Origin: Solirubrobacterales bacterium
Lineage (GTDB): Bacteria; Actinomycetota; Thermoleophilia; Solirubrobacterales; 70-9
Direction: 5' to 3'
Assembly (NCBI GenBank): GCA_035472275.1
Contig: DATIPH010000031.1
Location: 14,983-78,982 of the forward strand
Length of the DNA: 64,000 nt
Made by a program: the position numbers and the translations under genes. A model generated the notes under the pieces. The model did no database searches. It saw only the letters and a list, made by a program, of their open reading frames with translations, and was not told where the DNA came from. How positions within the stretch are numbered: position 1 is the first letter of the stretch; every line of letters begins with the position of its first letter. Shown here one piece after another: positions 2,164-20,823 of this stretch.

Positions 2164-3947
2164 TGGCGCTGATCTCGGCCGAGAGTCTGGAACGGGTTAA
2201 GCAGACGGCGGACATCGTCGAGGTGATCTCGGCCCACACCGACCTGCGCCGCCAGGGAGCCCGCTGGGTCGGCCTCTGCCCGTTCCACGAGGAGCGCACG
2301 CCCTCGTTCTCGGTCGATGCCCAGGAGAAGCTCTACCACTGCTTCGGCTGCGGGGTCGGGGGCGACGTGATCAAGTTCGTCGAGGAGAAGGAGGGGCTCG
2401 GCTTCGCCGAGGCGGTCGAGATCCTCGCCGATCGTTACGGGGTCGAGCTCGAGCGCGAGCAGGAGGACCCGCGGGCGGAGGCGCGGCGCCAGCAGCGCCG
2501 CCGCCTCGAGCAGCTGCTGGAGCGGACTGCCGCCTACTACGCCTCCTACCTCTGGGATTCCGAGGAGGCCGGTAAGGCGCGCGGTTACCTCGCCGAGCGC
2601 GGCCTGAATGAGGAGGTGCTGCGCGCCTTCGGCGTCGGCTTCGCCCCCAGCGCCTGGGACAAGATCCTCGTCCGCGGCCAGCAGGCTGGCTTCAGCGTCG
2701 CCGAGCTGCGCGGCGTCGGACTCGTCCAGCGCAACCAGCGGGGCGGCGAGTACGACCGCTTCCGCTCCCGGATCATGTTCCCGATCCGCGACCGCCGCGG
2801 CCGCACGCTGGGCTTTGGCGGCCGCGCGATGCGCTCCGAGCAAGGCGCCAAGTACGTCAACACGGCCGAGACGGACTTCTTCCACAAGAGCCAGATCCTC
2901 TACGGCGTCGATCTGGCGAAAGCGGCGATCGCCAAGGCCGGCCGCGCGGTCGTCGTCGAGGGCTATACCGACGTGCTCGCACTGCGCCAGGCCGGAGTCG
3001 AGGAGGTGATCGCGGTGATGGGGACGGCGATCACCGGTGAGCAGGTGGCGACGCTCTCGGGGATGGTCGACGAGGTGGTGCTCGCGCTCGACGCCGACTC
3101 GGCCGGCCAGGAGGCGATGCTGCGAGCGCAGCGGGTGGCGGCCGGGCGCAAGATGCGACTGCGAGTGGCGGCGATGCCGGCGGGCGTCGACCCGGCGGAG
3201 ATGATGGCCGAGGAGGGGGGCGCGGAGCGCTTCCGCAAGCTGGTCGACGACGCGGTCGAGCTCACCTCCTTCCAGGTCGGACTGGTGCTCGAGGGCACCG
3301 ACGTCGGCTCGCCGGTGGCGCGCGACCGCGCCTTGGAAGATGTGGCGCCGGTCTTGGCCGGGATGGGCGAGTCGGCAAGCCGCGACGAGCTCGTGCGCAG
3401 GGTCGCGGAGCGGCTCGACCTCGAGCCGGCGATGGTGATGGGACGGGTGGTGGCGGCGACGCCGGCTACCGGCGGGGCCGCAGCCGAGCCCACGGCCCCG
3501 CGCCGGAGCGCGCCGGCGCCGCAGGCCCCGCGCCGCGCCGCCGAACTGACCTCGCGTGAGCGCCGCGAGCGGGCGCTGCTGGCGATGTGCATCGCGATGC
3601 CCGACGAGGGCGCCGAGTTCCTCGCCCGCCTCACCGACGCCCACCTCTCGGCGACCGGAGCACAGGCCGCGGCCTGGTTGCGCCAGCACCCGGACGACCC
3701 CGCTTCCAACCTCCCTCAGGACGCCGAGATGGCAGGCCTGATCACCGAACTGGTGATGCTCTCCCGCGACCAGCCCGCCTCGGAAGAGGCGATGGAGCTG
3801 AACTTCCTGCTGCTCGAGCAGCGCCGGATCGAGGGCGACATCGCCGCCGCCGGGGAACGCGGGGACTACGAGCGCCGGGCCGCGCTCAGCCGTGAGCGGG
3901 CGGCGCTGGTGGAACGAATCGCCCACGCGCAGCGGGTCGGGTCCTGA
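2163..3947 (+). CDS. dnaG: DNA primase DnaG
   Basis: Zinc-binding CPFHEERTPSFSVDAQEKLYHCFGCGVGGDVIKFV, followed by Toprim-like EGYTDVLAL. The ATG overlaps the dgt stop. Confidence 0.95.
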   Translation: MALISAESLERVKQTADIVEVISAHTDLRRQGARWVGLCPFHEERTPSFSVDAQEKLYHCFGCGVGGDVIKFVEEKEGLGFAEAVEILADRYGVELEREQEDPRAEARRQQRRRLEQLLERTAAYYASYLWDSEEAGKARGYLAERGLNEEVLRAFGVGFAPSAWDKILVRGQQAGFSVAELRGVGLVQRNQRGGEYDRFRSRIMFPIRDRRGRTLGFGGRAMRSEQGAKYVNTAETDFFHKSQILYGVDLAKAAIAKAGRAVVVEGYTDVLALRQAGVEEVIAVMGTAITGEQVATLSGMVDEVVLALDADSAGQEAMLRAQRVAAGRKMRLRVAAMPAGVDPAEMMAEEGGAERFRKLVDDAVELTSFQVGLVLEGTDVGSPVARDRALEDVAPVLAGMGESASRDELVRRVAERLDLEPAMVMGRVVAATPATGGAAAEPTAPRRSAPAPQAPRRAAELTSRERRERALLAMCIAMPDEGAEFLARLTDAHLSATGAQAAAWLRQHPDDPASNLPQDAEMAGLITELVMLSRDQPASEEAMELNFLLLEQRRIEGDIAAAGERGDYERRAALSRERAALVERIAHAQRVGS

Positions 3948-3991: not shown

Positions 3992-4064
3992 TCCGGGGTA
4001 GCTCAATCGGCAGAGCATTCGACTGTTAATCGAAGGGTTGTGGGTTCGAGTCCCACCCCCGGAG
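3992..4064 (+). tRNA. tRNA-Asn (anticodon GTT)
   Basis: Hand-folded cloverleaf: acceptor TCCGGGG/CCCCGGA, D arm GCTCAATCGGCAGAGC, anticodon loop CTGTTAA, T arm GTGGGTTCGAGTCCCAC, discriminator G. Confidence 0.9.
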
Positions 4065-4137
4065 CTTCGCGGCGCTAGAGCTTTTAAGGCGACACGATTG
4101 ATGGCGCATCGCCTTTGTTCATGCGGAAAGCCGGTTG

Positions 4138-4168
4138 CTGTGCGCCAGTCCGTGCGCCAGTCGCCCCG
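4138..4168 (+). repeat. Copy 1 of tandem-motif box CTGTGCGCCAGTCCGTGCGCCAGTCGCCCCG
   Basis: Internal 12-nt-spaced duplication of GTGCGCCAG. A near-identical box lies at 7552-7583. Confidence 0.7.
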
Positions 4169-4219
4169 CCCGGATTCCAAACGCCCTCCCGACCGGGCGC
4201 GTCCATCTGCTTGCCTAGC

Positions 4220-4600
4220 ATGAGGACAACGGAAGCTCTCAAGCTTTCCCGAAAGGCCAAGATGGACGTAACTGGAACCATCGGCACTGCCTGGCGACAT
4301 AACGAGCTCGTTGGCGAGTTCGTGTTGCGTGGCGGCCGGGAGGCAGGAGCGGGAGGCCGGGTTGCGGAGCACGTCGAAATTCTGTTCCCTAGCTTCCTCG
4401 CCGTTGCGATTCGGCCCGAGCTAGAAAAGATTGTGAAAAAGGAACGCCTCCCAGAGGCTCTGATCCTCGACCTGGAGCTTGCCGATGGGAGAAAAATAAG
4501 CGGCTGTGAGGTTGCTGGATTCTGGGGGGGAGAACTCGGGGAGCGCTGGTTCGGAATTGACCTCGACCTCGATGAACTCGCCCGGGAATCTTTGGGCTAG
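4220..4600 (+). CDS. Hypothetical protein (126 aa)
   Basis: Inner ATG of track ORF 4115..4600. No recognisable motif. First ORF of the island. Confidence 0.3.
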   Translation: MRTTEALKLSRKAKMDVTGTIGTAWRHNELVGEFVLRGGREAGAGGRVAEHVEILFPSFLAVAIRPELEKIVKKERLPEALILDLELADGRKISGCEVAGFWGGELGERWFGIDLDLDELARESLG

Positions 4601-4985
4601 CCCCTCAAACCTCTCCCCCGCCAGACTCAGGGCGGGAAGCGCTCCAAGTTAAGAGCCGTCCAGTTTCCCAATCGTGCCGCCCTCTCCCTCTAGCGCCTCG
4701 ATGACACCTTCGCGCGCCGTCGCCAGACGGCTCAGGTTGTAGTGGCTGAGAGATGCACCGCTTACGGCGGAGTTGAGATCTCCCTTTGCGTAGCCGTGCC
4801 AACCTCGCGGACCAAGGCCTTGTCTGCATACCCCGTTTGCTAGCGCGGCGATTCCACCCCGTCTACCAACGTACTTAGGTACTTATGCGCATCGGAATAT
4901 TTGCGAAACAACTGCTTTCAAATGCGACGGCGAGGAAGTGTGGACGGGAGGCCAAGGGCCGCTTGGCCTCGAACTGCGAGAGCCG

Positions 4986-5213
4986 CTAGCTCGCCGCTTC
5001 GCTGCGCGCGACGGCGGCGAGAAGACCGTTGCCGATGCACTCTTCGCGGGCGATTCGCTCCTCGTGCGTGGCGCCGAAAAACAAGCGATCGGCATCCGGC
5101 TGGGGGACCCTTGGCCTGTGGTCTCGAAGCGCTTTCGCCCTACGCAGGAATTCGTCGGCGACCTCTTTGACTCGAGATCTCTCGCTCGAAGAGAGGCAAT
5201 TCTCGGACCTCAT
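4986..5213 (-). CDS. Hypothetical small protein (75 aa) downstream of the methylase
   Basis: Track ORF on the same strand as the methylase operon. No motif recognised; competing ORFs exist in other frames. Confidence 0.25.
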   Translation of the reverse strand: MRSENCLSSSERSRVKEVADEFLRRAKALRDHRPRVPQPDADRLFFGATHEERIAREECIGNGLLAAVARSEAAS

Positions 5214-5264
5214 ACGAACAGCGTACGCCTGCTGTCAGTCGAGATAGCGCTCAAGCGATCGGCG

Positions 5265-6146
5265 TCAAACAGGAGCTACGAAAGCGGCGCCAGCATCGCC
5301 CAGGCCTTCGAGCGTAGAGACCTGTAGCGCTGGCGCGAAGACCGCAAACTCGCGACCGACATGCTGGACGGCCGCGCTGTGAGAAAGGCTGAACTCGGCA
5401 CAGCGGAGCCCCGCGTAAAGATCCTCTGTGACCCGCGGATCGGCGTCGTAGGTAAGAAACCAGCGGCCGCCTTGGCGAAGCAAGGTCGAGAGTCGGACGT
5501 GGTCTTCCCAGTCGAGCGTGTCTAGGTAAAGGTGATCGCCTTTCCCGAGATATGGCGGGTCGGCATAGATGAAGGAATCCGCCTCGCGGACGAACCTTGA
5601 AATGAGGTCAATGCCGTCAACTTCCTCTACCGAGACTCGGCTCTGGTACTGAGCAAGGGCGCGGATACGTTGCGTCAGGCGATCCTTGTCGAAGCGGGCG
5701 TCAATTTTCCACCGGCCGCTCTGGTCGTACCCTCCGATGGGCCGCGCGTCGAGAATCCCGGAACGATTGGTCCGGTTCAGAAAGAACAGAGCGAACCCGA
5801 GCGCTACGTCGTCGTCGGGGCGAGCCAGATAGACCTCGCGCTGCCGATGCCATTCCGCCACGTTGACCTCGCAGTCGCTAAGGCATTCGAGCAGCTCATC
5901 GGGTGATTCGAAGACCGCTCGCCAGAACGCGGCGATTCCGGGGTTCAAGTCATTGATGACGATTTCGTCCACGTACTCATTCACGAGCAGCCGAAGACCA
6001 ACTCCAGCACCGCCCGCAAACGGCTCGATATAGATCGAGGGCCGTGGATTCTGCTGATCGAGCAGGGCTCCAATGAAGGCCGCGAGTCTTCCCTTTCCAC
6101 CCGGATATCGAAGTGGGCTCAGGTATCGCGCCGGGACCCTAGGCAT
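5265..6146 (-). CDS. D12-class N6-adenine DNA methyltransferase (Dam-like)
   Basis: LRYPGGKGRL near the N-terminus, AdoMet motif EPFAGGAGVG, catalytic DPPY (FIYADPPYLGKG). Confidence 0.85.
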   Translation of the reverse strand: MPRVPARYLSPLRYPGGKGRLAAFIGALLDQQNPRPSIYIEPFAGGAGVGLRLLVNEYVDEIVINDLNPGIAAFWRAVFESPDELLECLSDCEVNVAEWHRQREVYLARPDDDVALGFALFFLNRTNRSGILDARPIGGYDQSGRWKIDARFDKDRLTQRIRALAQYQSRVSVEEVDGIDLISRFVREADSFIYADPPYLGKGDHLYLDTLDWEDHVRLSTLLRQGGRWFLTYDADPRVTEDLYAGLRCAEFSLSHSAAVQHVGREFAVFAPALQVSTLEGLGDAGAAFVAPV

Positions 6147-7428
6147 TGTCGTTCAGCGCTTGGAGGAACGGCTCAAGGTTCGCGGCGATCGAGCGAATAC
6201 CTGAGCCGTCGGGATGGAAGTGGGGATTGTGGACGAACCCGTGCAGCGTGGCGACCGCGAACATGCTCGTGCCGTCAGAAAGACCCTGGCGAACCCCCTG
6301 GAACCGTTCGTCCTTCTGAGAGGGATCGACGGCATAGAGCGCGCGCTGAATTCGTTTTTTCAGTTTCCCATCGGTGGCGAGGCCCTTTTTGGCGATGAAC
6401 TGATCTATCGAAAGTTCCAAGATCGCACGGGTCAACAGGGCTGCCGCATTGGGAAGTTGGTCCACATCGACGCTCCGGAACTCCCCCAGGATTAGGTCCG
6501 TGCGTCCCCCGAGTTGGCTCAGGTCAAGACCGGCGAAGGGCCGCGGCGGTTTTTTCGGCCGCTTCGGTTTCTGCGGTTTGGGTTTCGGTTTCGCCTGGTT
6601 GGAGGCGTCCAGGGGTTTTGCAGTTGCTCGGCGCTTGTTCGGGTCGGGTTCTGGCGTCTGTTCTAGGTATTTCTTTCGGTCGGGCTTTTTCCGAATTTCG
6701 CTAACACCGATTTCAGAAGCGAAATCTCCAAGGACGTGCTCCACGAAGGCCTCAAGCTCTTTGGCCGAAAACTGGAAGGACAGGGAGCCGTTGACATCTT
6801 CCATCCCGATTCGCTTGCGGAACTCTTGATCGAGGACAAGGCGGCCAAGGGTCGTGAGGCGTTTGTTGGCGACCTCGGCCACGAGCGTCTGGATCACGTT
6901 GTTCTTTGGGTAGGCCTTCGAGATCTCTTCCAGGAATCGGATAGCCGCCCCAGCCTCACGGCCGGGCTTGGCGAAGCGGTTCGCCGCCATGGCGTTCCAG
7001 GGAACAACGCCCGCACCCTGCGCCTCACCACCATGCCGCAGAACCATCCAGTGTTTTGCCTCTTTGCGGGAAGGGACGATGGCGCAATCAGCCTCGGTTG
7101 GCAGAGGCCCTTTCGCTGCCAGGCGCCGCATCTGTTTCTCGATCGGGGTCCCGTCAGCCAAGCTCGGATTGCTGAGGATCTTCACGACCGCGATCCGTCG
7201 ATTGCCCTCGACAACGGTGTAGTTCCGCCCAGCCTTGATAACCAGAAGTCGATCTATTGGGCTCAGGCTGTTTTTCAGAATGTCCGCAGCGAGAACTGCG
7301 AGCTTCTGTCGCTCGCTCGCGATGAGCGCCGCGATCGCATCTTTTTGAGATGGAACTTTTCCGTGGCGGGGATTTTCCGTATCGAGGAGCAGCTTTCCGA
7401 CCGGGATCGTCTTCATTTCAATGGCCAT
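6139..7428 (-). CDS. ParB/sulfiredoxin-fold N-terminal domain protein with KP-rich linker and unassigned C-terminal domain (429 aa)
   Basis: IPVGKLLLDTENPRH and VVEGNRRIAVVKIL are ParB-N motifs; the linker is KPKPKPQKPKRPKKPPRP. Start taken at ATG 7428 (MAIEMK), since the 134-codon upstream extension of the track ORF looks non-coding. The stop overlaps the methylase ATG by 8 nt. Confidence 0.75.
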   Translation of the reverse strand: MAIEMKTIPVGKLLLDTENPRHGKVPSQKDAIAALIASERQKLAVLAADILKNSLSPIDRLLVIKAGRNYTVVEGNRRIAVVKILSNPSLADGTPIEKQMRRLAAKGPLPTEADCAIVPSRKEAKHWMVLRHGGEAQGAGVVPWNAMAANRFAKPGREAGAAIRFLEEISKAYPKNNVIQTLVAEVANKRLTTLGRLVLDQEFRKRIGMEDVNGSLSFQFSAKELEAFVEHVLGDFASEIGVSEIRKKPDRKKYLEQTPEPDPNKRRATAKPLDASNQAKPKPKPQKPKRPKKPPRPFAGLDLSQLGGRTDLILGEFRSVDVDQLPNAAALLTRAILELSIDQFIAKKGLATDGKLKKRIQRALYAVDPSQKDERFQGVRQGLSDGTSMFAVATLHGFVHNPHFHPDGSGIRSIAANLEPFLQALNDNA

Positions 7429-7436
7429 GGCGCGGC

Positions 7437-7466
7437 AGTATCTCCGGTTACACAGATTTGCGTCAA
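7437..7466 (-). promoter_or_regulatory. Possible promoter of the ParB-like/methylase operon (TTGACG, 18 nt, GATACT)
   Basis: Hexamers read on the minus strand. The -10 element ends 8 nt before the ATG, implying a very short or absent leader. Confidence 0.3.
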
Positions 7467-7551
7467 CATCGTCCAGTGATCGGGAAGCTTCATGTCGGTT
7501 TTTAATTCGCCCTGCAGACCTCAGCGCGCGACCCCGCGAACGGCACCCGCT

Positions 7552-7583
7552 CTGTGCGCCAGTTTGTGCGCCAGCCGGCCCCG
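7552..7583 (+). repeat. Copy 2 of tandem-motif box CTGTGCGCCAGTTTGTGCGCCAGCCGGCCCCG
   Basis: Matches 4138-4168 at 21 of the 23 core positions. Lies about 125 nt upstream of the ParB-like start, next to the hairpin CCGGAAACAGCCGGTTTCC. Confidence 0.7.
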
Positions 7584-7893
7584 GAAACAGCCGGTTTCCA
7601 CCGGCCGCAACCGGGCGAAGCAACGCAGCGTTTTGGCCTGGGCAGCACGGCGCAAACCCAATGCTGATGCCGTAGAACGCCGCAAACCCAGTTGTGGAGC
7701 GGAAGTCCTGGGACAAGACTCGAAACACGATCCAGTGGTGGCCCGAATTCGTGAACTCCACGCTCAACGCTACAAATCCGGCTACGGAGCCGACTGATTC
7801 AGTATGCGTGAGGCGGCTCGAACGCGTCAAGGGGGCCGGCTTTCCCAGCGATGGGCTATCGGAATCGCAGCCGTTCTTTTCTAGGGCGTGAAC

Positions 7894-8301
7894 CTAGAAG
7901 TGCTGCCCGAGAATGAAGCCAACGACCGAGACGACTACACCGCTGCCAATCTGAATCACCCAGGGATGATTCATGATCTGCTTCCAGTGGGACTCATCCT
8001 CGGTTGGCAGCTCGACTTGCGATTCTTGGATCGAGTCACTGATGGCTTTTAGTTCAGGCGGCCCAAGGTGAACCGCTGGGGCAGGAAGCCGGGGCTCGAT
8101 TCGAGGCCCTGGCTTGATCGGTTCTATGTCGATGAACGTACTTGCTTGATTTGCTTCTGCAAGAAGCGATTTGTAGGCAGATGATTCGAGCAGCTTTGCT
8201 CGGATCGACTGCAACGCCAATTCGACTTCCGGCGTCTTGGCCAGCTTGCTTGCGAAGTCCGGCGCTCTTTGGGTCAGCTGCTGAAATAACTCCGAATCCA
8301 T
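7894..8301 (-). CDS. Hypothetical tail-anchored membrane protein (135 aa)
   Basis: Single C-terminal hydrophobic helix WVIQIGSGVVVSVVGFILG. No other motif. Confidence 0.55.
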   Translation of the reverse strand: MDSELFQQLTQRAPDFASKLAKTPEVELALQSIRAKLLESSAYKSLLAEANQASTFIDIEPIKPGPRIEPRLPAPAVHLGPPELKAISDSIQESQVELPTEDESHWKQIMNHPWVIQIGSGVVVSVVGFILGQHF

Positions 8302-8395
8302 GCGGACAAAATCGCAGTCGGATCAGACGGATACTGCGAACGGACCTTCCGGGCGCAGGGCCTAGACCAGCAATAGGAGCAGATCAGCTCGGTGC

Positions 8396-8623
8396 TCATT
8401 TCCCCGACTCCAAAAGGCTCAGCGGCTCCACATCCAGCTTGCCCGCGATCTTCTCGACGTTCTTCAGCGTCAGGTTGCGCTCACCGCGCTCCAGGCCACC
8501 GACATAGGTGCGGTGGAGGCCGAGAGCGGTTGCAAAGTCGGCCTGGCTGAGGCCGCGAGCTTGGCGGTAGGTCCGCAGGTTCTGCCCGACGATGCGTTGG
8601 AGGTCGCCTTCCATTGGGAGCAA
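8396..8623 (-). CDS. XRE-family helix-turn-helix regulator (75 aa)
   Basis: LRTYRQARGLSQADFATALGLHRTYVGGLERGERNLTL is a classic Cro/C1 HTH. Confidence 0.85.
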   Translation of the reverse strand: MLPMEGDLQRIVGQNLRTYRQARGLSQADFATALGLHRTYVGGLERGERNLTLKNVEKIAGKLDVEPLSLLESGK

Positions 8624-8691
8624 TCAAACATGGAAGGGCTGACGAACGCCATACCCAATGAGGCAATTCGCGCTTTGGGACTGCCCCCGCG

Positions 8692-9534
8692 CTAGGGCTC
8701 GGACTGCTCGGCGGGCCGTGCCGGCGGTCCCGGCTGGCCCGGAACCTCCCGGCGCTCCCGTTCAAGTTCAGCTATCTCGTCGTCCGTGAGACCAGGGGAC
8801 AGCGCCTCTTCTTCAGCGCGTACTTCTCTCATTTTTTCATCACGGGCTATGTCTTTTCTCACTAGCTGCTCCCGGAGTTTCACCAGATCCGGGTCAGCGG
8901 CAGCCTTGCGCCCAATAGCGGTCCGATAGAGGCTCGCCTCTTCAGACCTACTGAGGCGCTGGTTGGTGTTCTCGGTGAGACTGGTCAGCCGCTCAAGGCG
9001 ATCCACGATCAGACCAAGGGTCCGCTCCTCAACATTGCCTCCTTGCAACTGGGCCAAACGCATTCCGTCTGAGATCGGGTTGTCGGCTGGATTGGTCAGC
9101 GATGCGCCGAGTTGCGTCTCCAGTTCTTGGCGGGCTACGTTGGCGCTGGCCAAGTCGTTGTGCTTGAAGAAGATGACTCGGGACTGGCCAAGATCAAAGG
9201 GCAGCTTGGTGTCTTCCTCGGCAATCAGGACGACCGGCAGCAGCGCGCCGTGGCGTACTGACAGCTCGTAGTAGACGTTGGGGTTGCCGCCGGTCAGGTC
9301 TGCTACAGCCGCTTTCGCTTCCAGGCAATGCTGGACGGCCTGAGAGGTGATCTGACCAGGCTCACCAACATCATCGGCGCGGAGGGTCTCGAGCCCGTGG
9401 GCCTCCGCGGCCGGTTTGACTATCCAGTCCCGTACGTCGTTCGAGCGCTTGCGGACATCAGTGCCTTGCTCGCCGATCGGCGCAATGAAGAAGCACTCCT
9501 GCTCAAAGTCAGCGGCCATTCCGTTGGCGACCAT
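8692..9534 (-). CDS. Rossmannoid NDT/TIR-like domain protein with charged coiled-coil tail (280 aa)
   Basis: CFFIAPIG strand, then ADLTGGNPNVYYELSVRHGALLPVVLI. This resembles the nucleoside 2-deoxyribosyltransferase/TIR-like core with a conserved Glu. The C-terminal 100 aa are rich in E/R/K. Confidence 0.6.
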   Translation of the reverse strand: MVANGMAADFEQECFFIAPIGEQGTDVRKRSNDVRDWIVKPAAEAHGLETLRADDVGEPGQITSQAVQHCLEAKAAVADLTGGNPNVYYELSVRHGALLPVVLIAEEDTKLPFDLGQSRVIFFKHNDLASANVARQELETQLGASLTNPADNPISDGMRLAQLQGGNVEERTLGLIVDRLERLTSLTENTNQRLSRSEEASLYRTAIGRKAAADPDLVKLREQLVRKDIARDEKMREVRAEEEALSPGLTDDEIAELERERREVPGQPGPPARPAEQSEP

Positions 9535-9573
9535 ATCCGCTGAGGGCGGGACTGCTCATCTCAGGTTTTTGGG

Positions 9574-10191
9574 TCAGCCGCCCGGCGATTCAAAGCCCAG
9601 CAGCGAGATAGTGGCTCGAATGGTCTTGGGATCTTTGGCTTTGGCCAGGCGGGAAGCACTCTCGCCCTGAATCTCCAGCACCTGATCGAGCGCGCCGCTC
9701 AGTAGCGTCATGGCGTCCTCCCAGCCTTGGTCGTCGAGGTTGAGCGGCGTGCAACTCAGGTGGCGGTCGTCGCGGGAATCGAAGGTCTCGTTCTCCAAGG
9801 CAGCCTTGGAGGCGTCATTGATCATCTGAAGACCGGCAACCGAGACGCCATTCTTGGCGTCGTCGGAGAGGGACGCCCAGTTCTCCGCGTTGAGAAAGGA
9901 GCGGGTGACGCCGCGAAAGAAGTGCTCCATTGCCCCCCGGCGCTGCTCGGCTTTGACCAGTTCGACGCAGCCCAGTTCTTCCAGCACACCGACGTGGTAG
10001 CTGACGTTGCCGAGTGGCTCGTCAAGCTCAAGATGAAGTTCCTTGGGGGAGGCCACTCGTTCGTTGAGGATCGCCAGGGCGCGGGCACGCAGGGGGTGTC
10101 CGACGGCCTTGGCCAGGCGGCTGTTGAAGCCGGCATATAGCTCGGATGACGGCTGGTCGCTGCTCTTGGCTCGGTCCTTCTTGGGGGGCAC
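9574..10191 (-). CDS. ArsR-like winged-helix protein with extra C-terminal domain (205 aa)
   Basis: AKAVGHPLRARALAILNERVASPKELHLELDEPLGNVSYHVGVLEELGCVELV is an ArsR/SmtB-type wHTH. Confidence 0.75.
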   Translation of the reverse strand: MPPKKDRAKSSDQPSSELYAGFNSRLAKAVGHPLRARALAILNERVASPKELHLELDEPLGNVSYHVGVLEELGCVELVKAEQRRGAMEHFFRGVTRSFLNAENWASLSDDAKNGVSVAGLQMINDASKAALENETFDSRDDRHLSCTPLNLDDQGWEDAMTLLSGALDQVLEIQGESASRLAKAKDPKTIRATISLLGFESPGG

Positions 10192-10523
10192 GGGGATACA
10201 GCTCCTTCAATAGTCGAGGGAACGATGAGCAATCGACTGTATTCGTGCAACCGGCTTGTGTCCAACTGCAAACGGCCCGAGTTTCTTCACTAGTGGAGGT
10301 CTCTCTACTATTGCCGCTTGGGCTGGGTTCTTAGCGCTCTAGCGAGCGCCTGGCGCTCAGCCGCGCCCTTTCGAGAGCGAAAGGGGGTGACAAAAGTGGC
10401 TATCAAGATCACGGAGCGCGTTGTTCCGGTCCTCGTCACGAAGCTCGGCTAGAGCCGGCAACAGCAGTAGCGGATGGTCTGCCCCAGTCTGGGCGGAGCA
10501 TCCGTCTCTCCGATCGGCGGCGC

Positions 10524-10877
10524 TCAGGACTTCGACGGGCGGTCCTCGATCGCCGCCTTGACCTCGCGGACCTCGCGATCGAGTTGGTCAAGACGAGCGA
10601 GCACCTGCTTCTCGAACGAAGCGCCGCCGCTGACTCGTCCGGCGGCCTGGAGCAGTTCGGTGGCGTCGACCTTGAGGGCGGCGGCCACCCGTTCGATGAT
10701 CTCGTCGGAAGGCGGGCCTTGCTTGCCTAGCTCCAGCCGGGAGAGGTTGGAGGGGCTCATCGGGATGCGCTCAGCCAGCTCGGCCAGGGTGTCGCCGCGC
10801 TTGCGCCGAAGGCGGCGCACCAGGACGCCGAGGGTCTCGGCGCGCTGAGTCTCTTTCTGTCCCTTGGGGCTGGCCAT
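10524..10877 (-). CDS. XRE-family HTH regulator with C-terminal coiled coil (117 aa)
   Basis: LRRKRGDTLAELAERIPMSPSNLSRLELGKQ is an HTH motif. Confidence 0.8.
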   Translation of the reverse strand: MASPKGQKETQRAETLGVLVRRLRRKRGDTLAELAERIPMSPSNLSRLELGKQGPPSDEIIERVAAALKVDATELLQAAGRVSGGASFEKQVLARLDQLDREVREVKAAIEDRPSKS

Positions 10878-11051
10878 GCTCCGCCAATCCCCTGACTACC
10901 GGCTAATAGTGGAAAACCCTAACCTATTCCCGCAAGTCGGGCTATGGCCCGGAATGCGGTAACGTCCGCACCGTGCCTGGCCGGGCTCCACAAAGTCACC
11001 CCCTCGGCCAGGCCACCACTTCAGGCGGGCAGCGACAGAAGGGCGGGAGCA

Positions 11052-11651
11052 ATGCGTGGCAGAGCGTGGCGGCGGTATGCAGTCCTAGCGGTGATCACCG
11101 GCTTGGCGGCGTGGGCGACGGTGCCGGCGACGAGCGTCACCGCAGCGCCGCCTCTCGAGCAAGCCTGCGTCAAGGCCGGACTGGTGCCGCCCGTGGTCAA
11201 AGAAGCCGTCATGGAACACCCCGGCAGCAAACGCGGCCGATTGCAGTCTGTCTCCACCAGCATTGAAGTCCCGGCGATGCCGGAAGAATGCTGGGGCATC
11301 TACCAGCGGCTGAGCGCCGCTGTCACCCAGATTCAAGACCCGCTGCACCACGCCCGCTGGTACAACACCAGCGGCTGTCGCTTCACGGCCAAGGAATGCG
11401 TCGGCATCAGCAAGCCGAACTGGTGGCAGTTGTCCTGGGCCAAGGACGAAGGCGGAATCGCCGGGCTTTACTCGCCGCCGACCGGCCATGAGGGAAAGTT
11501 CCTCTACTACGCCTGCACGCCCGGCAAGGGAGTCACCCACGTCCGGCTGCTGCTGAGGCGCACGATCAGGAGCGTCAGCACGCACCAAGTGATTGGGCGC
11601 AGCCGGATCAATGTCCGCCCAGTGGAAGTGCGAGGGAGGAAGCCATGCTGA
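11052..11651 (+). CDS. Secreted Cys-containing hypothetical protein, paralog A
   Basis: Signal peptide RRYAVLAVITGLAAWATVPATSVTA. Shares CV(K/E)AGL, P(E)xC and QIQ landmarks with the next gene. GGGAG Shine-Dalgarno before ATG 11052. Confidence 0.6.
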   Translation: MRGRAWRRYAVLAVITGLAAWATVPATSVTAAPPLEQACVKAGLVPPVVKEAVMEHPGSKRGRLQSVSTSIEVPAMPEECWGIYQRLSAAVTQIQDPLHHARWYNTSGCRFTAKECVGISKPNWWQLSWAKDEGGIAGLYSPPTGHEGKFLYYACTPGKGVTHVRLLLRRTIRSVSTHQVIGRSRINVRPVEVRGRKPC

Positions 11652-12286
11652 GGCGGGGATACCCCGCCCTGGTGATCATCGCGGGGCTGTTGGCCGGGCT
11701 GACGGTGTCGATGACGGCACCGTCAGCCAGAGCGGAAGACGAACTCGGGCAGACCTGTGTCGAAGCTGGCTTGGCTCGGCCGGGAGCGCTGCACGCCATT
11801 GAAATGCACCGTGCCGGTTTGCGACCGGGCACGCCTGGTCACTACCACTCGCAGGGGGTCTCCGGGGTCTTGCTGTTCGGGGCACTGCCGGAAGGCTGCG
11901 TGCCGTCAGTGGTTCGGACGGCGACGGCGCAGATTCAGATGTGGCGGGGGCGCTGGGTGAATGTCGGAGCAAGGCACGGCAACATGGAAGCCCCCGGCAA
12001 CAGCGAACGAGCTACCAAGCTCTTTGCTGGCCCGACCCATGCGTGGCCAAGCTACGTCTTCAATGAATGTGGAGCTGGTGGGAAGTGGCTGAAAGTCCGA
12101 GCAGTCGTCGGGCTCCAGGTCAAGGACAGCAGCAGCCATGCAGTGCTGGGAGCTCAGCGCTACGTGTGGCCGGTGCAGGTGCATGGAAGCTGCCGGTTGG
12201 CACGGATCAGCAAGAAGCAGACGGCCAGCTACAAAGAAGAATGGGGCCAAGGGAGTGGGAGGGTGCGAGTCGATTCTCCGGGTTGA
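11645..12286 (+). CDS. Secreted Cys-containing hypothetical protein, paralog B
   Basis: Signal peptide ALVIIAGLLAGLTVSMTAPSARA. GAGGGAGGA Shine-Dalgarno. Overlaps paralog A by 7 nt. Confidence 0.6.
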   Translation: MLRRGYPALVIIAGLLAGLTVSMTAPSARAEDELGQTCVEAGLARPGALHAIEMHRAGLRPGTPGHYHSQGVSGVLLFGALPEGCVPSVVRTATAQIQMWRGRWVNVGARHGNMEAPGNSERATKLFAGPTHAWPSYVFNECGAGGKWLKVRAVVGLQVKDSSSHAVLGAQRYVWPVQVHGSCRLARISKKQTASYKEEWGQGSGRVRVDSPG

Positions 12287-12520
12287 TCGCGCGGTTTCGG
12301 GTTGAACTGAGGGCGAAACGAGCCAAGGGCGTCCGGAGGCATAGACACACTGCTGTCCTGTGAGCCCCCTCTCACTTGGCTTGAGCACTAGCCGAGTCGG
12401 CAGCTTCGTCTTGGTAGCCTGCCGCGATTCGTGCGACCCCCTGCCTAGATCTGTGTTGATTCCAGGTATGCACAGACAAAACCTTGTATTTACACAAGAG
12501 TTCTCGCATACTTAAAATAA

Positions 12521-12907
12521 ATGGAGAAATTTCCTGCCAATACCGCTAGCGTTCCCGCATCTCAGGAGTCTGCGCTGCGGTCGTTCTTTGTCCGCCTGCT
12601 GGGACCCCTTGTACGGCAACCTCAGCGGGAGGACGACAAAGCAGTGAGCAACGGCGAAGGTGAACAGGCAGCATCGACGGGCATCACGCTTGAAGATGTC
12701 CAAGCAGAGTTGAACAGAGTGGACGAGGAGCGTCGGAATCGGACGCCCGACTGGATGCCTCAGCCCTTGGAGCTTGGACCACAGCGCTACCCCGACCCCA
12801 GGCTCTGGGGTCCGGAGAATGGGACCGAGGACGAGAGCTACCGAGACTCTCTGAAGCTCCTTCCCAATTTTGAGCCTGCTCACGTGTCGGCCAAGCGCAA
12901 CCGCTAG
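12521..12907 (+). CDS. Hypothetical acidic protein (128 aa)
   Basis: Track ORF, first gene of the A/T-rich cassette, preceded by an A/T-rich promoter-like stretch. Confidence 0.45.
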   Translation: MEKFPANTASVPASQESALRSFFVRLLGPLVRQPQREDDKAVSNGEGEQAASTGITLEDVQAELNRVDEERRNRTPDWMPQPLELGPQRYPDPRLWGPENGTEDESYRDSLKLLPNFEPAHVSAKRNR

Positions 12908-12932
12908 CTCTCCCTCCTTCATCGCTAGCTCT

Positions 12933-14777
12933 ATGAGTTGGGTGGACGCGCTTCGGCGCCTGATGGGTTGGTCTGATCCTGTAGCTGAGTTCAACTTCGA
13001 TATCACCGTGGATCGTGTCGGCTGCCTCGCAGATTTGATCACCCGGCCAACCCGCTATGTACAGCGGCTGGCCGAGCAGCTGTCGTTTGTGCCGACGGGT
13101 GGGCAGCAGTGGGTGCGCACCCTTCAGATTCAGATCCCAGAAACGAGTGGCTCGAAGCAGCCTGACTGGTGGATCATCCCCCTCGGACAGTTCAGTCGCA
13201 AACGCTTTGCCGACTTGGTGGCGCGCGACGCACATGGTCAGCGCCTCAATCTGCTTACGCGAAACCAGCACGGGGACGCTCTCACCGATGTGTTGACCAC
13301 GAACTATGCCTCACAGCTTGATCCTGCCTCGCGGGCGCTGCTGCCTGAGGAACAGCCGAGAGAAGCAGCGCTGCTCCTGCGATCACTCCTCTTTGAGTAC
13401 CTAACGAATCTCGATGTGCCGCCCGACGACGATGACTGGACGCCGGGAGCTAGCAAGCCCGTGCATCAGGTCTCTCAACAATACAAGTCTCTCTTGCTAG
13501 CCCTCAAACTGTCCGACTCCGACAGCGACGCTCGCGCCCAGCAGTTCTTCAAAGAAGTTGCGGAGCAGACCCGGACCGCTCCCTATCTCTGCTGGGTCAA
13601 AGCATCACCCGGCGAGGTAATCAGCGTGCAGGTGACCTACTCCTCAACGGATCCGAAGCATAGCCTCGCACTCGGCAGCTTGTGGGATCTGTTCTTGTCG
13701 ATACTCAAAGGTCTGGTTCCGCTATGGGGTAAAGCCCGGTCGATACGTGCTCGCTGGTTTCGGCAGTATGGACTTGCGCCAATTGACTACGCCTTCGATA
13801 TTCCAAATCAGGCGAGTACTGGCAGCTACTACCTGAGGCTGCAACCTCCAGACAACACCATTTGCTCGTATCTCGATTGGGCGGTTGATGATTCGTTCAA
13901 TGAGGAGAAGGAAGCAGACGGCGCGTTTCCTTCGGCACACATTCACAACAACGACCCAACTCATCCCGAAACCGGCACCCCAGCCGATAAAGGCGATAGG
14001 GCAAGCGAGGCTATCCGCGCCTATCTGCGCTGTGCGCCCCATCACCACAAGCAGATTCTTGGCGCAACGATGCTCAATGTGGTGGTCGTGTGGCTCCTTG
14101 CAAAGGGAGAGCTTCCAATCGGATTTGGAGAGCCATTGCAAGCCCTCATCGCTGCGGCTCCGTCAATTCTCATCGCGTTTCTCGCGCAGCAGCAACGTCA
14201 CTACTACTCACAGGTGATGCGACGGCAACGGGCGATCCTGTGGACCTACTTGTTTATCAGCGTGTCGTTCCTTGTCAGTGTGGCTTTTAGCGCGCAGAGT
14301 CACTCGACGCATGAGAGTGGATTGCCGTGGCTGGCCAACATTGCTGCGTGGGTACTGGCGATCAGCAGTACCGGAGTCTTCTTCTGGCACTTGCCACTAG
14401 GAGGTAGCTATGAACGGGTCATCAAATATCTCACTGATCGCAAGTGGGAAGTCGCTCAGCCTTCGCAAGAGAGCCTAGGACCTGTACGTGCCTTTGGATT
14501 CGACGTGCGGAAGCAGTGGTGGAAGTGGTGGAACGTCAATTTCACGACGAAATGGGAATGCTACGCGGACGCAGTGCGGCAGTACTGCTGCATAATTTGC
14601 ATTCTTGTCGTTGCGTCTATGGGTGGCGCTGCGTTTCTGCTCAGTGAATTTGCGGACTTTTCGCTGAAGCCACAGCCACGCCCCCCTAGCGGGCGCCCAG
14701 TGTTCACCAATGGGCAGGCACCGACGTCGTTGCCGCGTCCAGACACCGAGCGAATAGACTTAAGCCCAACGTGGTGA
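12933..14777 (+). CDS. Large hypothetical membrane protein (614 aa): about 400-aa soluble N-domain plus 4-5 C-terminal TM helices
   Basis: Long ORF in an A/T-rich region, where spurious long ORFs are unlikely. Hydrophobic helices include LGATMLNVVVVWLLA, IAAAPSILIAFLA, ILWTYLFISVSFLVSVAF, IAAWVLAISSTGVFFW and IICILVVASMGGAAFLL. ATG 12933 preferred. Confidence 0.7.
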   Translation: MSWVDALRRLMGWSDPVAEFNFDITVDRVGCLADLITRPTRYVQRLAEQLSFVPTGGQQWVRTLQIQIPETSGSKQPDWWIIPLGQFSRKRFADLVARDAHGQRLNLLTRNQHGDALTDVLTTNYASQLDPASRALLPEEQPREAALLLRSLLFEYLTNLDVPPDDDDWTPGASKPVHQVSQQYKSLLLALKLSDSDSDARAQQFFKEVAEQTRTAPYLCWVKASPGEVISVQVTYSSTDPKHSLALGSLWDLFLSILKGLVPLWGKARSIRARWFRQYGLAPIDYAFDIPNQASTGSYYLRLQPPDNTICSYLDWAVDDSFNEEKEADGAFPSAHIHNNDPTHPETGTPADKGDRASEAIRAYLRCAPHHHKQILGATMLNVVVVWLLAKGELPIGFGEPLQALIAAAPSILIAFLAQQQRHYYSQVMRRQRAILWTYLFISVSFLVSVAFSAQSHSTHESGLPWLANIAAWVLAISSTGVFFWHLPLGGSYERVIKYLTDRKWEVAQPSQESLGPVRAFGFDVRKQWWKWWNVNFTTKWECYADAVRQYCCIICILVVASMGGAAFLLSEFADFSLKPQPRPPSGRPVFTNGQAPTSLPRPDTERIDLSPTW

Positions 14778-14784
14778 TCGTCGA

Positions 14785-15654
14785 CTAGCTGATCCCAACC
14801 CTCTCCCCAAACCCCTGACGGTCCCACTCGCCAACTTGGGCCAAAATAAAGCGCAGCTCTCTTGCTTGCTCTTTGGTTAGGTCGCCGGTCCAGCCGGCTA
14901 GACGAATGAGCGAGTCAGAGTTGTATGTGGCGGTACCGTGGAGAATCGCTTTGCCGTATTGCTCCATGTAGGCGCTTAGCGTGGTGAGTAGCCGAGCCAG
15001 ATACCACAGAGCGCCCACCGATGCATCAGCGTGCTCATGGGCCTTCTCGGGGTCACCTCGGCTGGCTTCCCGGGCAATCACTTCTGCTCGCAACCCGTAG
15101 ACATCACTCCAAATGCGAGAGAGCAAAACCTCATGGTCGGCAGTATCTGAATGAGCAATCTGTTCCTCGGCGATGACCGGCGTGTGACCTGACGCTTCAA
15201 ATGGCTCGCCGTCCTGGGCTCGCCGCACATACTGCAAGCTGTCCTGATGCAGTAGCCAAGCCACTTCTCCGAGTATCTGTGGCTCGATCCGCTTGCGGAA
15301 GTGATGTAGCTCGTAATCGAGGAGGTTGGCGGCATGGCGACGACGCTCAGTCAGCGTCCGGCCACCGCGGGCAACCACGAATAGTCCAGTCGCCGCTTCG
15401 CGGCGCTGCTTCGGCACTATCGCTTTCAGCGTTCCCTTCAACAGGCGTTCTAGTGCATCGACGCGGGCAAGCCGGTCACCTGACCGAACACTGCGGGCGA
15501 TCACCCCATTGAGTTGCAGCAGATCATCGGGCACCTGATCCGGTCGCAGGGGGATCCCCGTGCGCAACACGGTCTTGAGTGCCTCAACAGTGCCTCCCAG
15601 TTCGGCTCCCTCGGGTGGCTGAGACGGTGGTTTCTTGCGCTTCGGGCTACCCAT
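14785..15654 (-). CDS. Hypothetical protein (289 aa), convergent with the membrane protein gene
   Basis: Track ORF. ATG 15654 (MGSPKRKKPP) preferred. No family recognised. Confidence 0.55.
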   Translation of the reverse strand: MGSPKRKKPPSQPPEGAELGGTVEALKTVLRTGIPLRPDQVPDDLLQLNGVIARSVRSGDRLARVDALERLLKGTLKAIVPKQRREAATGLFVVARGGRTLTERRRHAANLLDYELHHFRKRIEPQILGEVAWLLHQDSLQYVRRAQDGEPFEASGHTPVIAEEQIAHSDTADHEVLLSRIWSDVYGLRAEVIAREASRGDPEKAHEHADASVGALWYLARLLTTLSAYMEQYGKAILHGTATYNSDSLIRLAGWTGDLTKEQARELRFILAQVGEWDRQGFGERVGIS

Positions 15655-15656
15655 CC

Positions 15657-15697
15657 ATGCCCAGCATATGCCCACATTGGGAACTTTTAGATGCCCA
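15657..15697. promoter_or_regulatory. Divergent promoter region with three direct ATGCCCA boxes
   Basis: ATGCCCA at 15657, 15668 and 15691, so the spacings are 11 and 23 nt. Lies between divergent starts at 15654 (-) and 15722 (+). Confidence 0.4.
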
Positions 15698-15721
15698 GTA
15701 ACAACCCGGAGGGTCGGAGCC

Positions 15722-15994
15722 ATGACCCCACCACGCATTTGTCCCCCACCGCCGACCGCCCCCGACTGCGGTCTCTTCGACCAGCGCCTCAGCTACGTCC
15801 CGGATGAGCCGCTGCGCCGGGCCGTTCTCATGGACCGGCGCAAGTCCCGCGACCTGGCCGCCTTCGTGTGGGCCGACTTCAACCGTGACCGCCGCCCGGT
15901 GGCTGAGCCAAAGGCTCCCACCCCCACGGTGCCACCGCTTCCCAGGCCGGCGCTGCCCTCCACTTCGATGATCGAGAAAGGAGTTCTGCGATGA
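15722..15994 (+). CDS. Hypothetical Pro-rich protein (90 aa)
   Basis: Inner ATG of the track ORF. First gene of a tightly packed plus-strand operon. Confidence 0.45.
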   Translation: MTPPRICPPPPTAPDCGLFDQRLSYVPDEPLRRAVLMDRRKSRDLAAFVWADFNRDRRPVAEPKAPTPTVPPLPRPALPSTSMIEKGVLR

Positions 15995-16308
15995 ATGAAC
16001 TGCCAGCCCGGCTCGACGGGCTGCGGCCCTCCCGTCAACTGACGCGGGCGACTGCTGCCCAGGAACGAACTGAGTTGGCCGTCTTCGAGCACCATCTTGC
16101 CGCCCGCTATCTCGCAGAGATCGACCGCATCGACTCGACTGCGATCGCAGATGTTGCTGAAGCTGCCCTCGGGGAGGAGATGCGGGTTCTCGACTGGGGC
16201 CTGAGTGAAGCCGGTGACAGCGTTACCAAAGCTGAGTTGGTCTCGCGCAAGGTCAGCTTGCAATCGCGGATCAACAACGCCCGGATCGCCCGGCGCTTCG
16301 GGGGGTGA
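15991..16308 (+). CDS. Hypothetical protein (105 aa)
   Basis: 4-nt overlaps with both neighbours suggest an operon. Confidence 0.5.
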   Translation: MNELPARLDGLRPSRQLTRATAAQERTELAVFEHHLAARYLAEIDRIDSTAIADVAEAALGEEMRVLDWGLSEAGDSVTKAELVSRKVSLQSRINNARIARRFGG

Positions 16309-16577
16309 AGGCGATGTTCGAGCTACTACTGACGATCGTCGCCGGCTCCGGAGCAGGCGCACTCTGTGGCGGCCTGCTGGCCGCCTGGCTGTTGCGGCGT
16401 CACCACCGGACTGAGGACGGTCAGCCCGACGCGTTGGACCCTTGGGTATCGGCCGAAATCGACCGGGCGGCTGTGGAGTTCGCCAACCGCAATGGGCGGC
16501 CGGAGACCGCCCCGCTCATTGCCGACAAGCTCCACCTGTTGCATCACCTGGGCCAGCGTCAAGGAGGCTCAGAATGA
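16305..16577 (+). CDS. Small membrane protein (90 aa)
   Basis: N-terminal TM helix LLLTIVAGSGAGALCGGLLAAWLL. Confidence 0.5.
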   Translation: MKAMFELLLTIVAGSGAGALCGGLLAAWLLRRHHRTEDGQPDALDPWVSAEIDRAAVEFANRNGRPETAPLIADKLHLLHHLGQRQGGSE

Positions 16578-16813
16578 TCTGGGTACTGCTCTTGCTGGCG
16601 GTGGCCTTCGTCGTCTTCCTGGCGTGGCGGAACGGTCAGTCACCGCCACAGCAACGAGACCCAGAAGCCGAACTGAAAGCGGCCCTGGAGTTGCACGCCA
16701 TCCGGCGTCGGCTGGAAGCAGCCGAGCTAAAGCATCAACAGCGCCAGGACGCTGCCCGGCTCAGGCGGGACATTCAGGAGTCCCTGGACGAGTCCGACGG
16801 TCGTGTCTCCTAG
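16574..16813 (+). CDS. Small membrane protein (79 aa)
   Basis: AAGGAGG Shine-Dalgarno 7 nt before ATG 16574. TM helix IWVLLLLAVAFVVFLAW. Confidence 0.6.
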   Translation: MIWVLLLLAVAFVVFLAWRNGQSPPQQRDPEAELKAALELHAIRRRLEAAELKHQQRQDAARLRRDIQESLDESDGRVS

Positions 16814-17318
16814 AACGGCACCCACCGGCTTTCGGCATGAGCCCACGGTCGGCGGCAGCGTCGAGTGGTACACGCCGCCGGAGCTGTTCGCTGCGCTCGG
16901 GCTGACCTTCGACCTCGACCCGGCATCGCCGCCTGGCGGGCTGCCCTGGGTGCCGGCGGTCCAGCACTTCTCCCGTGATGACGATGGTCTGAGTCGTCCC
17001 TGGCATGGCCGGGTCTGGCTCAACCCACCCTACGGTCGGCGAGTTGGCGAGTGGCTCGACCGTTTGGCTGTCCACGGTGATGGCATGGCCCTGGTCTTCG
17101 CCCGCACCGACACCGCCTGGTTCGAGCGGGCTTTCCGGGCTGCCACCGCTGCCTGCTTCGTCCGCGGACGCCTGCACTTCATCAGCGGCGATGGCAGGCC
17201 GGCGCCGGGGCCAGCCGCGGCACCCTCGCTGCTGCTGGCTTACGGCCTGTCATGTTCCCTGGCGTTAGCTGCCTCGGAACTTGGGCGAGTCTGCATCGTG
17301 CCGAAGGATGCTCCGTGA
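16803..17318 (+). CDS. Phage-type DNA N6-adenine methyltransferase (small Dam family)
   Basis: EWYTPPELFAALGLTFDLDPASP followed by VWLNPPYG, the hallmark of the phage Dam-type family. Confidence 0.75.
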   Translation: MSPRTAPTGFRHEPTVGGSVEWYTPPELFAALGLTFDLDPASPPGGLPWVPAVQHFSRDDDGLSRPWHGRVWLNPPYGRRVGEWLDRLAVHGDGMALVFARTDTAWFERAFRAATAACFVRGRLHFISGDGRPAPGPAAAPSLLLAYGLSCSLALAASELGRVCIVPKDAP

Positions 17319-17485
17319 AAGGGCTGGGCTCGACGGCGCTGGTGGCAATGCTCCTGCTGCTTGCCCTAGCGGCGGCCACGCCGTCGCTCATCGCCCTCAG
17401 TGGCGCCCTACTGCCGCTAGTGGTCGTGTTGGCCGTGGCGATCGTCCTGGTTCGCCTGGTCCTTTTCCACACCCGGAATTGGTGA
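17315..17485 (+). CDS. Small two-helix membrane protein (56 aa)
   Basis: GTG overlaps the methylase stop. The sequence is almost entirely hydrophobic (LVAMLLLLALAAA, LLPLVVVLAVAIVLVRLVLF). Confidence 0.45.
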   Translation: MKGLGSTALVAMLLLLALAAATPSLIALSGALLPLVVVLAVAIVLVRLVLFHTRNW

Positions 17486-17648
17486 GGCACAGCGTGATTG
17501 CCCTGCTGTCAATTCCACGCCTTGACCCTCCAACTGAAGGCATCGGACAATGGAAGGTTCGCGTTGGCACCTGGGTTGGTTCCTCACTCCCTCATCCCCG
17601 AAGACGTGGGCGAATGGCAGCACAAGAAACGGGAGAGGAGGTTCCACG

Positions 17649-17804
17649 ATGCCAAGAAATAAATCAACCAAGCCACGCCTGACGCGGGTCAGCGTCGAGC
17701 CAGAGGAGCGAGACGAAATTGACTGGGACCGCTTCGCCTGGGCGCTTCTTCAGCACTGCCGGCTCAAGATTGAAGCTGAAGAGAAGGAAGCGACCGAGCT
17801 ATGA
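17649..17804 (+). CDS. Hypothetical small protein (51 aa)
   Basis: GGGAGAGGAGG Shine-Dalgarno before ATG 17649. The stop overlaps the next gene's ATG. Confidence 0.45.
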   Translation: MPRNKSTKPRLTRVSVEPEERDEIDWDRFAWALLQHCRLKIEAEEKEATEL

Positions 17805-19816: not shown

Positions 19817-19928
19817 GTCGTCCGCTCGCTCGTCCGCTCGCGTTGAGCTTGGGCCGGCGCAGTTGGCGCTGTCATCAGCCGCTGCGGTTGGTTCTGCCGC
19901 TGACTGGTACTCCAGAAATGGGGTTCCG

Positions 19929-20753: not shown

Positions 20754-20823
20754 AACTTGCAGTGATCCTGCATACTTATATGTAGCATCTGAGACCACGG
20801 ATCAAGTGGAGAAGGGAGAGAAA

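Follow-up and report, generated by a model that had tools for sequence, protein, structure and literature searches.

A string of four genes in a mobile island

We analyzed a string of four co-oriented minus-strand genes at positions 7894-10191 of a 64,000-nucleotide (nt) stretch of a Solirubrobacterales contig (DATIPH010000031.1; the whole stretch is referred to as the window), together with the island that flanks the string. A sequence-only reading had taken these genes for one system that combines a sensor or regulator, a nucleotide-processing enzyme and a membrane component. Our analysis points to a different interpretation, which we consider fairly probable: the string is pieced together, mosaic-like, from unrelated modules in a mobile island, and the gene of a 280-amino-acid (aa) protein within it is an independent, single-gene cargo of the N-glycosidase type. 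The four genes are as follows.

9574..10191, minus strand: wHTH205, a 205-aa ArsR-type winged helix-turn-helix (wHTH) regulator with a conserved C-terminal domain
8692..9534, minus strand: gene of the 280-aa protein, with an N-domain (about residues 9-165) of predicted N-glycosidase fold and a helical tail (168-263)
8396..8623, minus strand: XRE75, a 75-aa XRE/Cro-type helix-turn-helix (HTH) protein
7894..8301, minus strand: TM135, a 135-aa ORFan with a C-terminal hydrophobic helix

The positions match the list of open reading frames (ORFs) exactly, with gaps of 39, 68 and 94 nt between the genes. The 280-aa gene probably starts at Met6 (window position 9519), where its homologues begin and the NCBI gene model of 275 aa starts, so that the first gap becomes 54 nt. 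The family calls made for the two regulators were correct (HTH_20 at 9e-6 for wHTH205, HTH_3 at 8e-16 for XRE75), and TM135 does end in a hydrophobic stretch, VIQIGSGVVVSVVGFILG. Both motifs quoted for the 280-aa protein are present: ADLTGGNPNVYYELSVRHGALLPVVLI corresponds to residues 78-104, and ECFFIAPIG occupies residues 13-21 and not, as had been assumed, the very N-terminus.

The 280-aa protein has a predicted N-glycosidase fold with a candidate catalytic glutamate

The sequence-only reading had recognized a Rossmannoid domain resembling nucleoside deoxyribosyltransferases (NDTs) and TIR domains, with a conserved glutamate, and PADLOC, a PDB profile search and AlphaFold/Foldseek agree with this assignment. 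The PADLOC profile of the CBASS 'Effector TIR' matches residues 36-125 (1.6e-7). A phmmer search against PDB sequences returned a sole and weak match, the TIR-STING protein Cap12 (7un8, E=1.1), in which DLTGGNPNVYYELS is paired with SLTKPRDNVVFEFG. By spacing in this alignment, N84, N86 and E90 face R78, N80 and E84 of SfSTING (R-x-N-x3-E), residues whose roles in the SfSTING TIR domain have been described, with E84 being catalytic (PMC9402430). A family profile trimmed to the domain matched Rcl/DNPH1 (E=0.019) and paired VVADLT..NpNVfYEL with VVAEVTQPSLGVGYELG. E90 of the family thereby falls on the glutamate of the GYELG motif in the DNPH1 segment VVAEVT..GVGYELG, that is, on E104, the catalytic covalent nucleophile of this enzyme (PMC10603095). 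Trimming made this search informative, as family profiles that included the helical tail retrieved coiled-coil noise only.

Structure prediction gave a consistent picture. For the full-length AlphaFold model (predicted local distance difference test, pLDDT, 81), the top Foldseek match was TIR-STING (2e-4), accompanied by mixed Ras and flavodoxin matches; the low template modelling (TM) scores of this model are due to the helical tail. The domain-only model of the N-domain (pLDDT 90.3, predicted TM score 0.86) matched MilB first (6.8e-5, TM 0.65), followed by NDTs, DNPH1 and BcmB, and the latter three dominate its top 50 matches. This is the outcome of the fold check by Foldseek that the sequence-only reading had suggested, and it ranks NDT-type enzymes above TIR domains. 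In BFVD, the top match of the domain model was a phage protein of 303 aa that carries the annotation CMP/hmCMP hydrolase (4.6e-14, TM 0.88, 30% identity). Fourteen positions are invariant in 51 divergent family members: F15, G21, R28, R52, D54, G60, N84, N86, V87, Y89, E90, F113, D114 and P153. On these profiles and models, the N-domain is assigned to the TIR/DrHyd (NDT-like) nucleotide N-glycosidase fold class, with E90 in place as the candidate catalytic glutamate. The tail is charged, as had been noted from the sequence, and AlphaFold predicts long helices for residues 168-263; it is hypervariable between homologues, some of which end in a SEC-C zinc motif.

In comparison with characterized proteins, DNPH1/Rcl, MilB, BcmB and the NDTs (DrHyd, PF05014) are the best structural matches, with TM scores of 0.54-0.69. 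The 280-aa protein shares with the DNPH1/NDT superfamily the strand-loop-helix motif and the placement of E90 on the catalytic glutamate, but it carries an additional helical tail of about 110 aa, and its gene does not lie in a nucleoside-antibiotic or salvage context. With the bacterial TIR NADase effectors of CBASS and Pycsar (SfSTING/Cap12) it has in common the N-x3-E motif aligning to N80/E84 of SfSTING; unlike these effectors, it lacks a STING or SAVED sensor domain. A further likeness concerns SpbK of B. subtilis and the NDT-like retron effectors, which likewise unite a glycosidase head and a helical or coiled-coil region in one polypeptide. This likeness is one of architecture; distant relatives of the 280-aa protein are prophage-borne, and its domain order is opposite to that of SpbK. 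In contrast to the NDT-like retron effectors, no reverse transcriptase or non-coding RNA lies near the 280-aa gene.

The domain could also be a non-catalytic nucleotide-binding sensor of the TIR/DrHyd/SLOG class, which would make the protein a signalling or scaffold component. Such inactive sensor versions of the clade have been described (PMC9503650), and some family members carry additional output or regulatory domains as fusions (HTH, GGDEF/cyclase, GAF, STAS). However, the glutamate, both asparagines and several arginines are strictly kept even in very divergent members, a pattern typical of catalytic versions, and we regard a sensor function as quite improbable.

The family is very large and reaches into plasmids and temperate phages

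A word-indexed search retrieved 498 relatives of the 280-aa protein, which for the most part share 55-75% identity with it across the N-domain. When the N-domain was used for an exhaustive HMMER search, 15,228 representative clusters (representatives at 50% identity) reached E<=1e-3, and 6,051 reached E<=1e-10. Members of 250-340 aa with the domain at the N-terminus predominate, and longer ones carry NUDIX, STAS, cyclase (GGDEF/cyclase), GAF, HTH or zinc-ribbon domains. The family spans actinobacteria, haloarchaea, proteobacterial plasmids and Firmicute prophages. Using tblastn, we found relatives on 86 plasmids, some annotated as 'TRAFs-binding domain/DUF4071/TPR-containing', and in 45 phage records, chiefly of temperate Streptococcus and Staphylococcus phages and including temperate Enterococcus phages. 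The phage homologues are annotated as hypothetical proteins; in SM1 and SAP-26, the gene is reverse-oriented and placed within the early/lysogeny region, which is a typical moron position. The 280-aa protein matches the phage families PHROG 3634 (4.8e-35) and PHROG 10872, both listed with unknown function.

The host range of the temperate phages found by tblastn, Streptococcus, Staphylococcus and Enterococcus, is also the one named for a family described by Iyer et al. 2022 (PMC9503650). The two families are likely the same; between actinobacterial and phage members, identity is only ~30%, and the tails differ. The family is large, experimentally uncharacterized and already glimpsed computationally, and its novelty is modest. 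What the present data add to this huge unnamed family of stand-alone NDT/TIR-like proteins is a fold assigned with high confidence and a candidate for the catalytic residue.

The four genes do not form a conserved unit

The neighbourhoods of the family were compared in 22 loci from GTDB species genomes and 48 from metagenomes, plus further gene-called contigs. With wHTH205, TM135 and the two PD-Lambda-5 proteins (A and B) encoded beside the string as tblastn queries, no homologue was found in any of the ~70 family loci; generic XRE similarity appeared in a few of them. When the neighbouring ORFs were clustered all against all, no family recurred in more than a handful of loci. For 134 neighbours from ~43 loci, scans with Pfam and PADLOC gave a heterogeneous, predominantly metabolic set with isolated defence matches, in which BPD_transp_1 (6 members) and NERD (4) were the commonest families.

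Several individual loci show the gene in mobile or defence-like surroundings. In L029 and L043, a gene for a CapP-like M78 peptidase immediately precedes the homologue, and an XRE gene lies upstream; in L027 the homologue follows an integrase and an excisionase. In L023, it shares a 1.9-kb integrase-less islet with a HEPN-MNT pair, and the islet is bracketed by two identical 42-bp copies of the tRNA-Glu 3' end in direct orientation (5931-5972, 7853-7894). In L028, the homologue and a 649-aa beta-helix protein are encoded on a ~3.4-kb segment between two AhpC/redoxin gene fragments (49 and 83 aa, at 3433-3582 and 6951-7202, minus strand), which suggests an insertion that split the redoxin gene. 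One genome holds two copies of the family (L001, L012).

The gene wHTH205 has another, conserved partner, which lies just beyond the four-gene string and comprises the following features.

10524..10877, minus strand: XRE117, a 117-aa XRE (HTH_31) regulator, conserved upstream partner of wHTH205
10396..10452, plus strand: small ORF of 18 aa (MAIKITERVVPVLVTKLG) with a strong Shine-Dalgarno sequence, GAAAGGGGGTGA
10470..10505: strong hairpin, flanked by the stop codon of the small ORF and that of XRE117, with a conserved outer stem GCGGATG/CATCCGC

wHTH205 itself matches HTH_20 and ArsR/SmtB models, and more than 940 homologues show conservation along the whole protein. In all three loci of close wHTH205 homologues (L078-L080), XRE117 lies upstream of the wHTH gene in the same orientation at a spacing of ~330 nt, with identities of 61-72% for wHTH205 and 68-77% for XRE117. 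The small ORF between them is divergent from wHTH205 and convergent with XRE117. Its frame is preserved in four loci via synonymous changes and an in-frame 3-nt indel, giving peptides of 18-19 aa with the variants MAIKSTERIVPVLVTKLG, MAIKQVEQTAPILQITKLG and MAIHKTEHVVPAVSVTKLG, and its homologues are located as follows.

L078, 3738-3810
L079, 3729-3804
L080, 3735-3810

The hairpin is probably a bidirectional terminator, and the small ORF may encode the peptide component of a regulatory switch. IMG/VR scans found no copy of the small-ORF module. The XRE117 module is restricted to a subfamily, as it is missing beside wHTH205 homologues of lower identity (48-56%). This combination of an XRE gene, a gene for an 18-19-aa peptide and an ArsR-type wHTH gene in actinobacterial islands may be a switch worth studying.

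A sister element, L079/L081, shows the two regulators of the string without the enzyme. There, the wHTH gene is followed 80 nt on by an XRE gene whose product is 53% identical to XRE75, and no TIR-like gene lies between them. The sister element sits at the same tRNA-Glu (L081 5947-6019) as the L023 islet, in genomes that are syntenic at 76-78% nt identity, and this tRNA-Glu is an island hotspot. When the non-coding flanks of the 280-aa gene were compared with the wHTH-XRE spacer of L081, nothing aligned outside the coding sequence. XRE75 best matches the restriction-modification (R-M) 'Control_protein' profile of PADLOC (3.1e-19) and is also capH-like. No C-box-like palindrome or inverted repeat was found upstream of it (8624-8691); downstream follow one ORFan, 465 nt and then PD-Lambda-5, and no R-M-like genes follow the XRE75 homologue of L081.

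The downstream ORFan, TM135, has no homologue other than itself in a clustered collection of 5.8 billion proteins and is a lineage-specific ORFan; its GC content by codon position (0.62/0.39/0.62) is coding-like. Third-position GC content (GC3) also separates the genes, with 0.78-0.84 for the three regulators versus 0.70 for the 280-aa gene, 0.62 for TM135 and 0.68-0.69 for PD-Lambda-5.

These comparisons bear directly on the proposal that the wHTH protein, the NDT/TIR-like enzyme, the XRE protein and the tail-anchored membrane protein form one dedicated and novel conflict system. In its favor are the co-orientation, the short gaps, the lack of any terminator-like site found between the four genes, their position in a mobile island beside an established defence system and the resemblance of XRE75 to defence-associated regulators (C-proteins, CapH). 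Nevertheless, homologues of wHTH205 and TM135 occur in 0 of the ~70 enzyme-family loci, wHTH205 keeps XRE117 and the small ORF as its partners, in the sister element the wHTH and XRE genes are direct neighbours and the enzyme gene is missing between them, TM135 has no homologue, and the GC3 of the regulators differs from that of the enzyme gene. Because of the missing co-occurrence, the four-gene proposal is largely refuted, and we now hold it to be very improbable. The four genes are a chance neighbourhood and not a conserved system; the supposed new system dissolves into the mosaic of a mobile island and should not be carried forward as such.

A stand-alone effector as the favored explanation

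On top of the fold assignment, the alignment of the glutamate, the absence of conserved partner genes and the setting in an island, we infer an enzymatic activity, a substrate and a defence role for the 280-aa protein, which would fit together in the following way. XRE117, the 18-aa small ORF and wHTH205 would constitute a conserved regulatory module of the element backbone, and XRE75 would be a C-protein/CapH-like regulator, which directly follows the wHTH gene in the sister element. The 280-aa gene would sit between wHTH205 and XRE75 as cargo. In the encoded enzyme, E90 would act as the catalytic carboxylate, either as nucleophile or as stabilizer of an oxocarbenium intermediate, while N84, N86 and D54 might bind the ribose and R28, R52 and R119 the phosphate. 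The variable helical tail could control oligomerization or the recognition of a trigger, as in other TIR and NDT effectors. Once active, the enzyme would cleave the N-glycosidic bond of NAD+ or of (deoxy)nucleoside monophosphates (NMP/dNMP), and the resulting depletion or alteration of nucleotide pools would make it a stand-alone conflict effector of the abortive-infection type.

The positions in islands, islets and prophages suggest a role in conflict, as do the copies regulated by CapP/XRE, the hypervariable tail and the paralogy within one genome. Most likely, the 280-aa protein would work as a single-gene effector with nucleotide/NAD+ glycosidase activity. A wider proposal would be that the whole, very widespread family (>15,000 clusters) consists of single-gene immune effectors, in which the N-glycosidase head is gated by a phage-sensing hypervariable tail. 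We put this forward tentatively and consider it rather doubtful; if true, it would define a new stand-alone defence family that is absent from PADLOC 2.0. Independent of this, the island, islet and prophage contexts make the family an inexpensive single-gene candidate for assays of phage defence and of NADase/nucleosidase activity.

Several points weigh against the explanation favored here. The 280-aa protein had no match in scans of Pfam (E<=0.1) and NCBIfam; at this Pfam threshold neither the curated TIR models (PF01582, PF13676, PF10137, PF08937) nor PF05014 matched, the latter being matched weakly (5e-4) by 2 of 51 family relatives. No close relatives were found in IMG/VR. The general acid D80 of DNPH1 is not kept, with A66 aligning there and the nearly invariant Q65 adjoining, and the 280-aa protein is therefore not a DNPH1 orthologue. 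For a defence gene, the N-domain is unusually well conserved (50-77% identity). Furthermore, the 'insertion' of the 280-aa gene between wHTH205 and XRE75 rests on one sister element, and the short, terminator-free gaps make a co-transcription of the four genes at this locus conceivable. Finally, the neighbours in other loci are mostly metabolic genes, and in at least four Solirubrobacterales genomes the gene lies in a housekeeping setting, between an smc-like gene 14-34 nt upstream and ftsY-ffh.

Some of these points would fit a housekeeping enzyme, namely a DNPH1/MilB-like (d)NMP N-glycosidase that clears aberrant or modified nucleotides and whose presence in the island is incidental. The best structural matches are indeed NMP/dNMP N-glycosidases, and the high conservation of the N-domain, the many metabolic neighbours and the maintained smc-X-ftsY-ffh position are in line with such a function. 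This explanation is to be taken seriously as a rival but appears unlikely to us, since it leaves several features of the family aside: the hypervariable tail, the fusions to HTH, NUDIX, STAS, GAF and cyclase domains, the two copies in one genome, and the copies in tRNA islets, next to integrases, as a prophage moron or beside CapP-like and XRE genes. The missing counterpart of DNPH1 Asp80 speaks against it as well.

As a side observation on the smc-associated copies, the gene at the smc position encodes a protein of 789 aa in L002 (3616-5985) and L031 (2617-4986), with complete Walker A, signature (LSGGEK) and Walker B motifs. This SMC-like protein is too short to accommodate a normal hinge and a long coiled coil, and the TIR/NDT-like gene begins 14-16 nt downstream. 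We also considered that the smc-adjacent copies might be fragments of a split smc gene; this was ruled out, as the 789-aa protein has complete N- and C-terminal head motifs.

The mobile island and its PD-Lambda-5 system

The setting of the string in a mobile element, the defence system next to it and the XRE117/small-ORF module just beyond its coordinates had all been overlooked in the sequence-only reading. The element and its defence genes are delimited by the following features.

3992..4065, plus strand: tRNA-Asn, left edge of the low-GC island
5265..6146, minus strand: PD-Lambda-5 gene B, a D12-class N6-adenine (Dam-like) DNA methyltransferase (PADLOC 1.2e-99)
6139..7428, minus strand: PD-Lambda-5 gene A (PADLOC 2.2e-102), starting MAIEMKT...
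17801-19816, plus strand: FtsK/TraD/TrwB-like coupling ATPase, island mobility gene
19680-20753, plus strand: Replic_Relax protein (relaxase-like), island mobility gene
20806-22647, plus strand: large serine recombinase, island mobility gene

The GC content falls from ~0.70-0.74 to ~0.60 directly after the tRNA-Asn and rises again at 22647. Together, these features describe an integrative mobile element of ~18.6 kb (~4066-22650) beside the tRNA-Asn, which resembles actinomycete integrative and conjugative elements (AICE-like). No direct repeat of the tRNA-Asn 3' end delimiting the island was found, so the right edge was placed by GC content and the recombinase gene.

PD-Lambda-5 is a validated defence system of broad range, described as a compact combination of restriction-modification and abortive infection (PMC9519451; Vassallo et al. 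2022). Genes A and B overlap by 8 nt, and with both profiles matched the system is complete. The ORF call for gene A (6139-7830, 563 aa) is over-extended, with the real start being the ATG at 7428. The system follows TM135 on the downstream side, at a distance of 465 non-coding nt; it is a neighbour outside the four-gene string, and no link to the 280-aa family was seen in the other loci. A PADLOC scan of 18 island proteins revealed no Thoeris, CBASS or Pycsar partners (ThsA, CD-NTase, cyclase).

Further observations concern the island itself. Beyond XRE117, two adjacent plus-strand genes, 10944-11651 (235 aa) and 11645-12286 (213 aa), encode proteins with signal-peptide-like N-termini and no family match. 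The 213-aa gene has a homologue in the sister element L081 (8609-8897, ~70% nt identity) and is therefore part of the shared element backbone. At the right island edge, a fragment resembling the 3' half of a tRNA, GGGGTCTCGTGGGTTCGAATCCCACCTCCTCCGCCA, overlaps the end of the recombinase ORF (~22593-22630, minus strand). ARAGORN called no full tRNA at this position, and the fragment may be an old attachment-site remnant. Moreover, a 30-nt repeat with a tandem TGTGCGCCAG motif occurs in two copies of 87% identity, one just inside the left end of the island (4138-4167) and one within the 465 non-coding nt that precede PD-Lambda-5 A (7552-7581); it could be an operator or a recombination site. A short island ORF at 16803-17318 on the plus strand matches the orphan DNA methyltransferase profile of PADLOC (oMTase, 1e-10).

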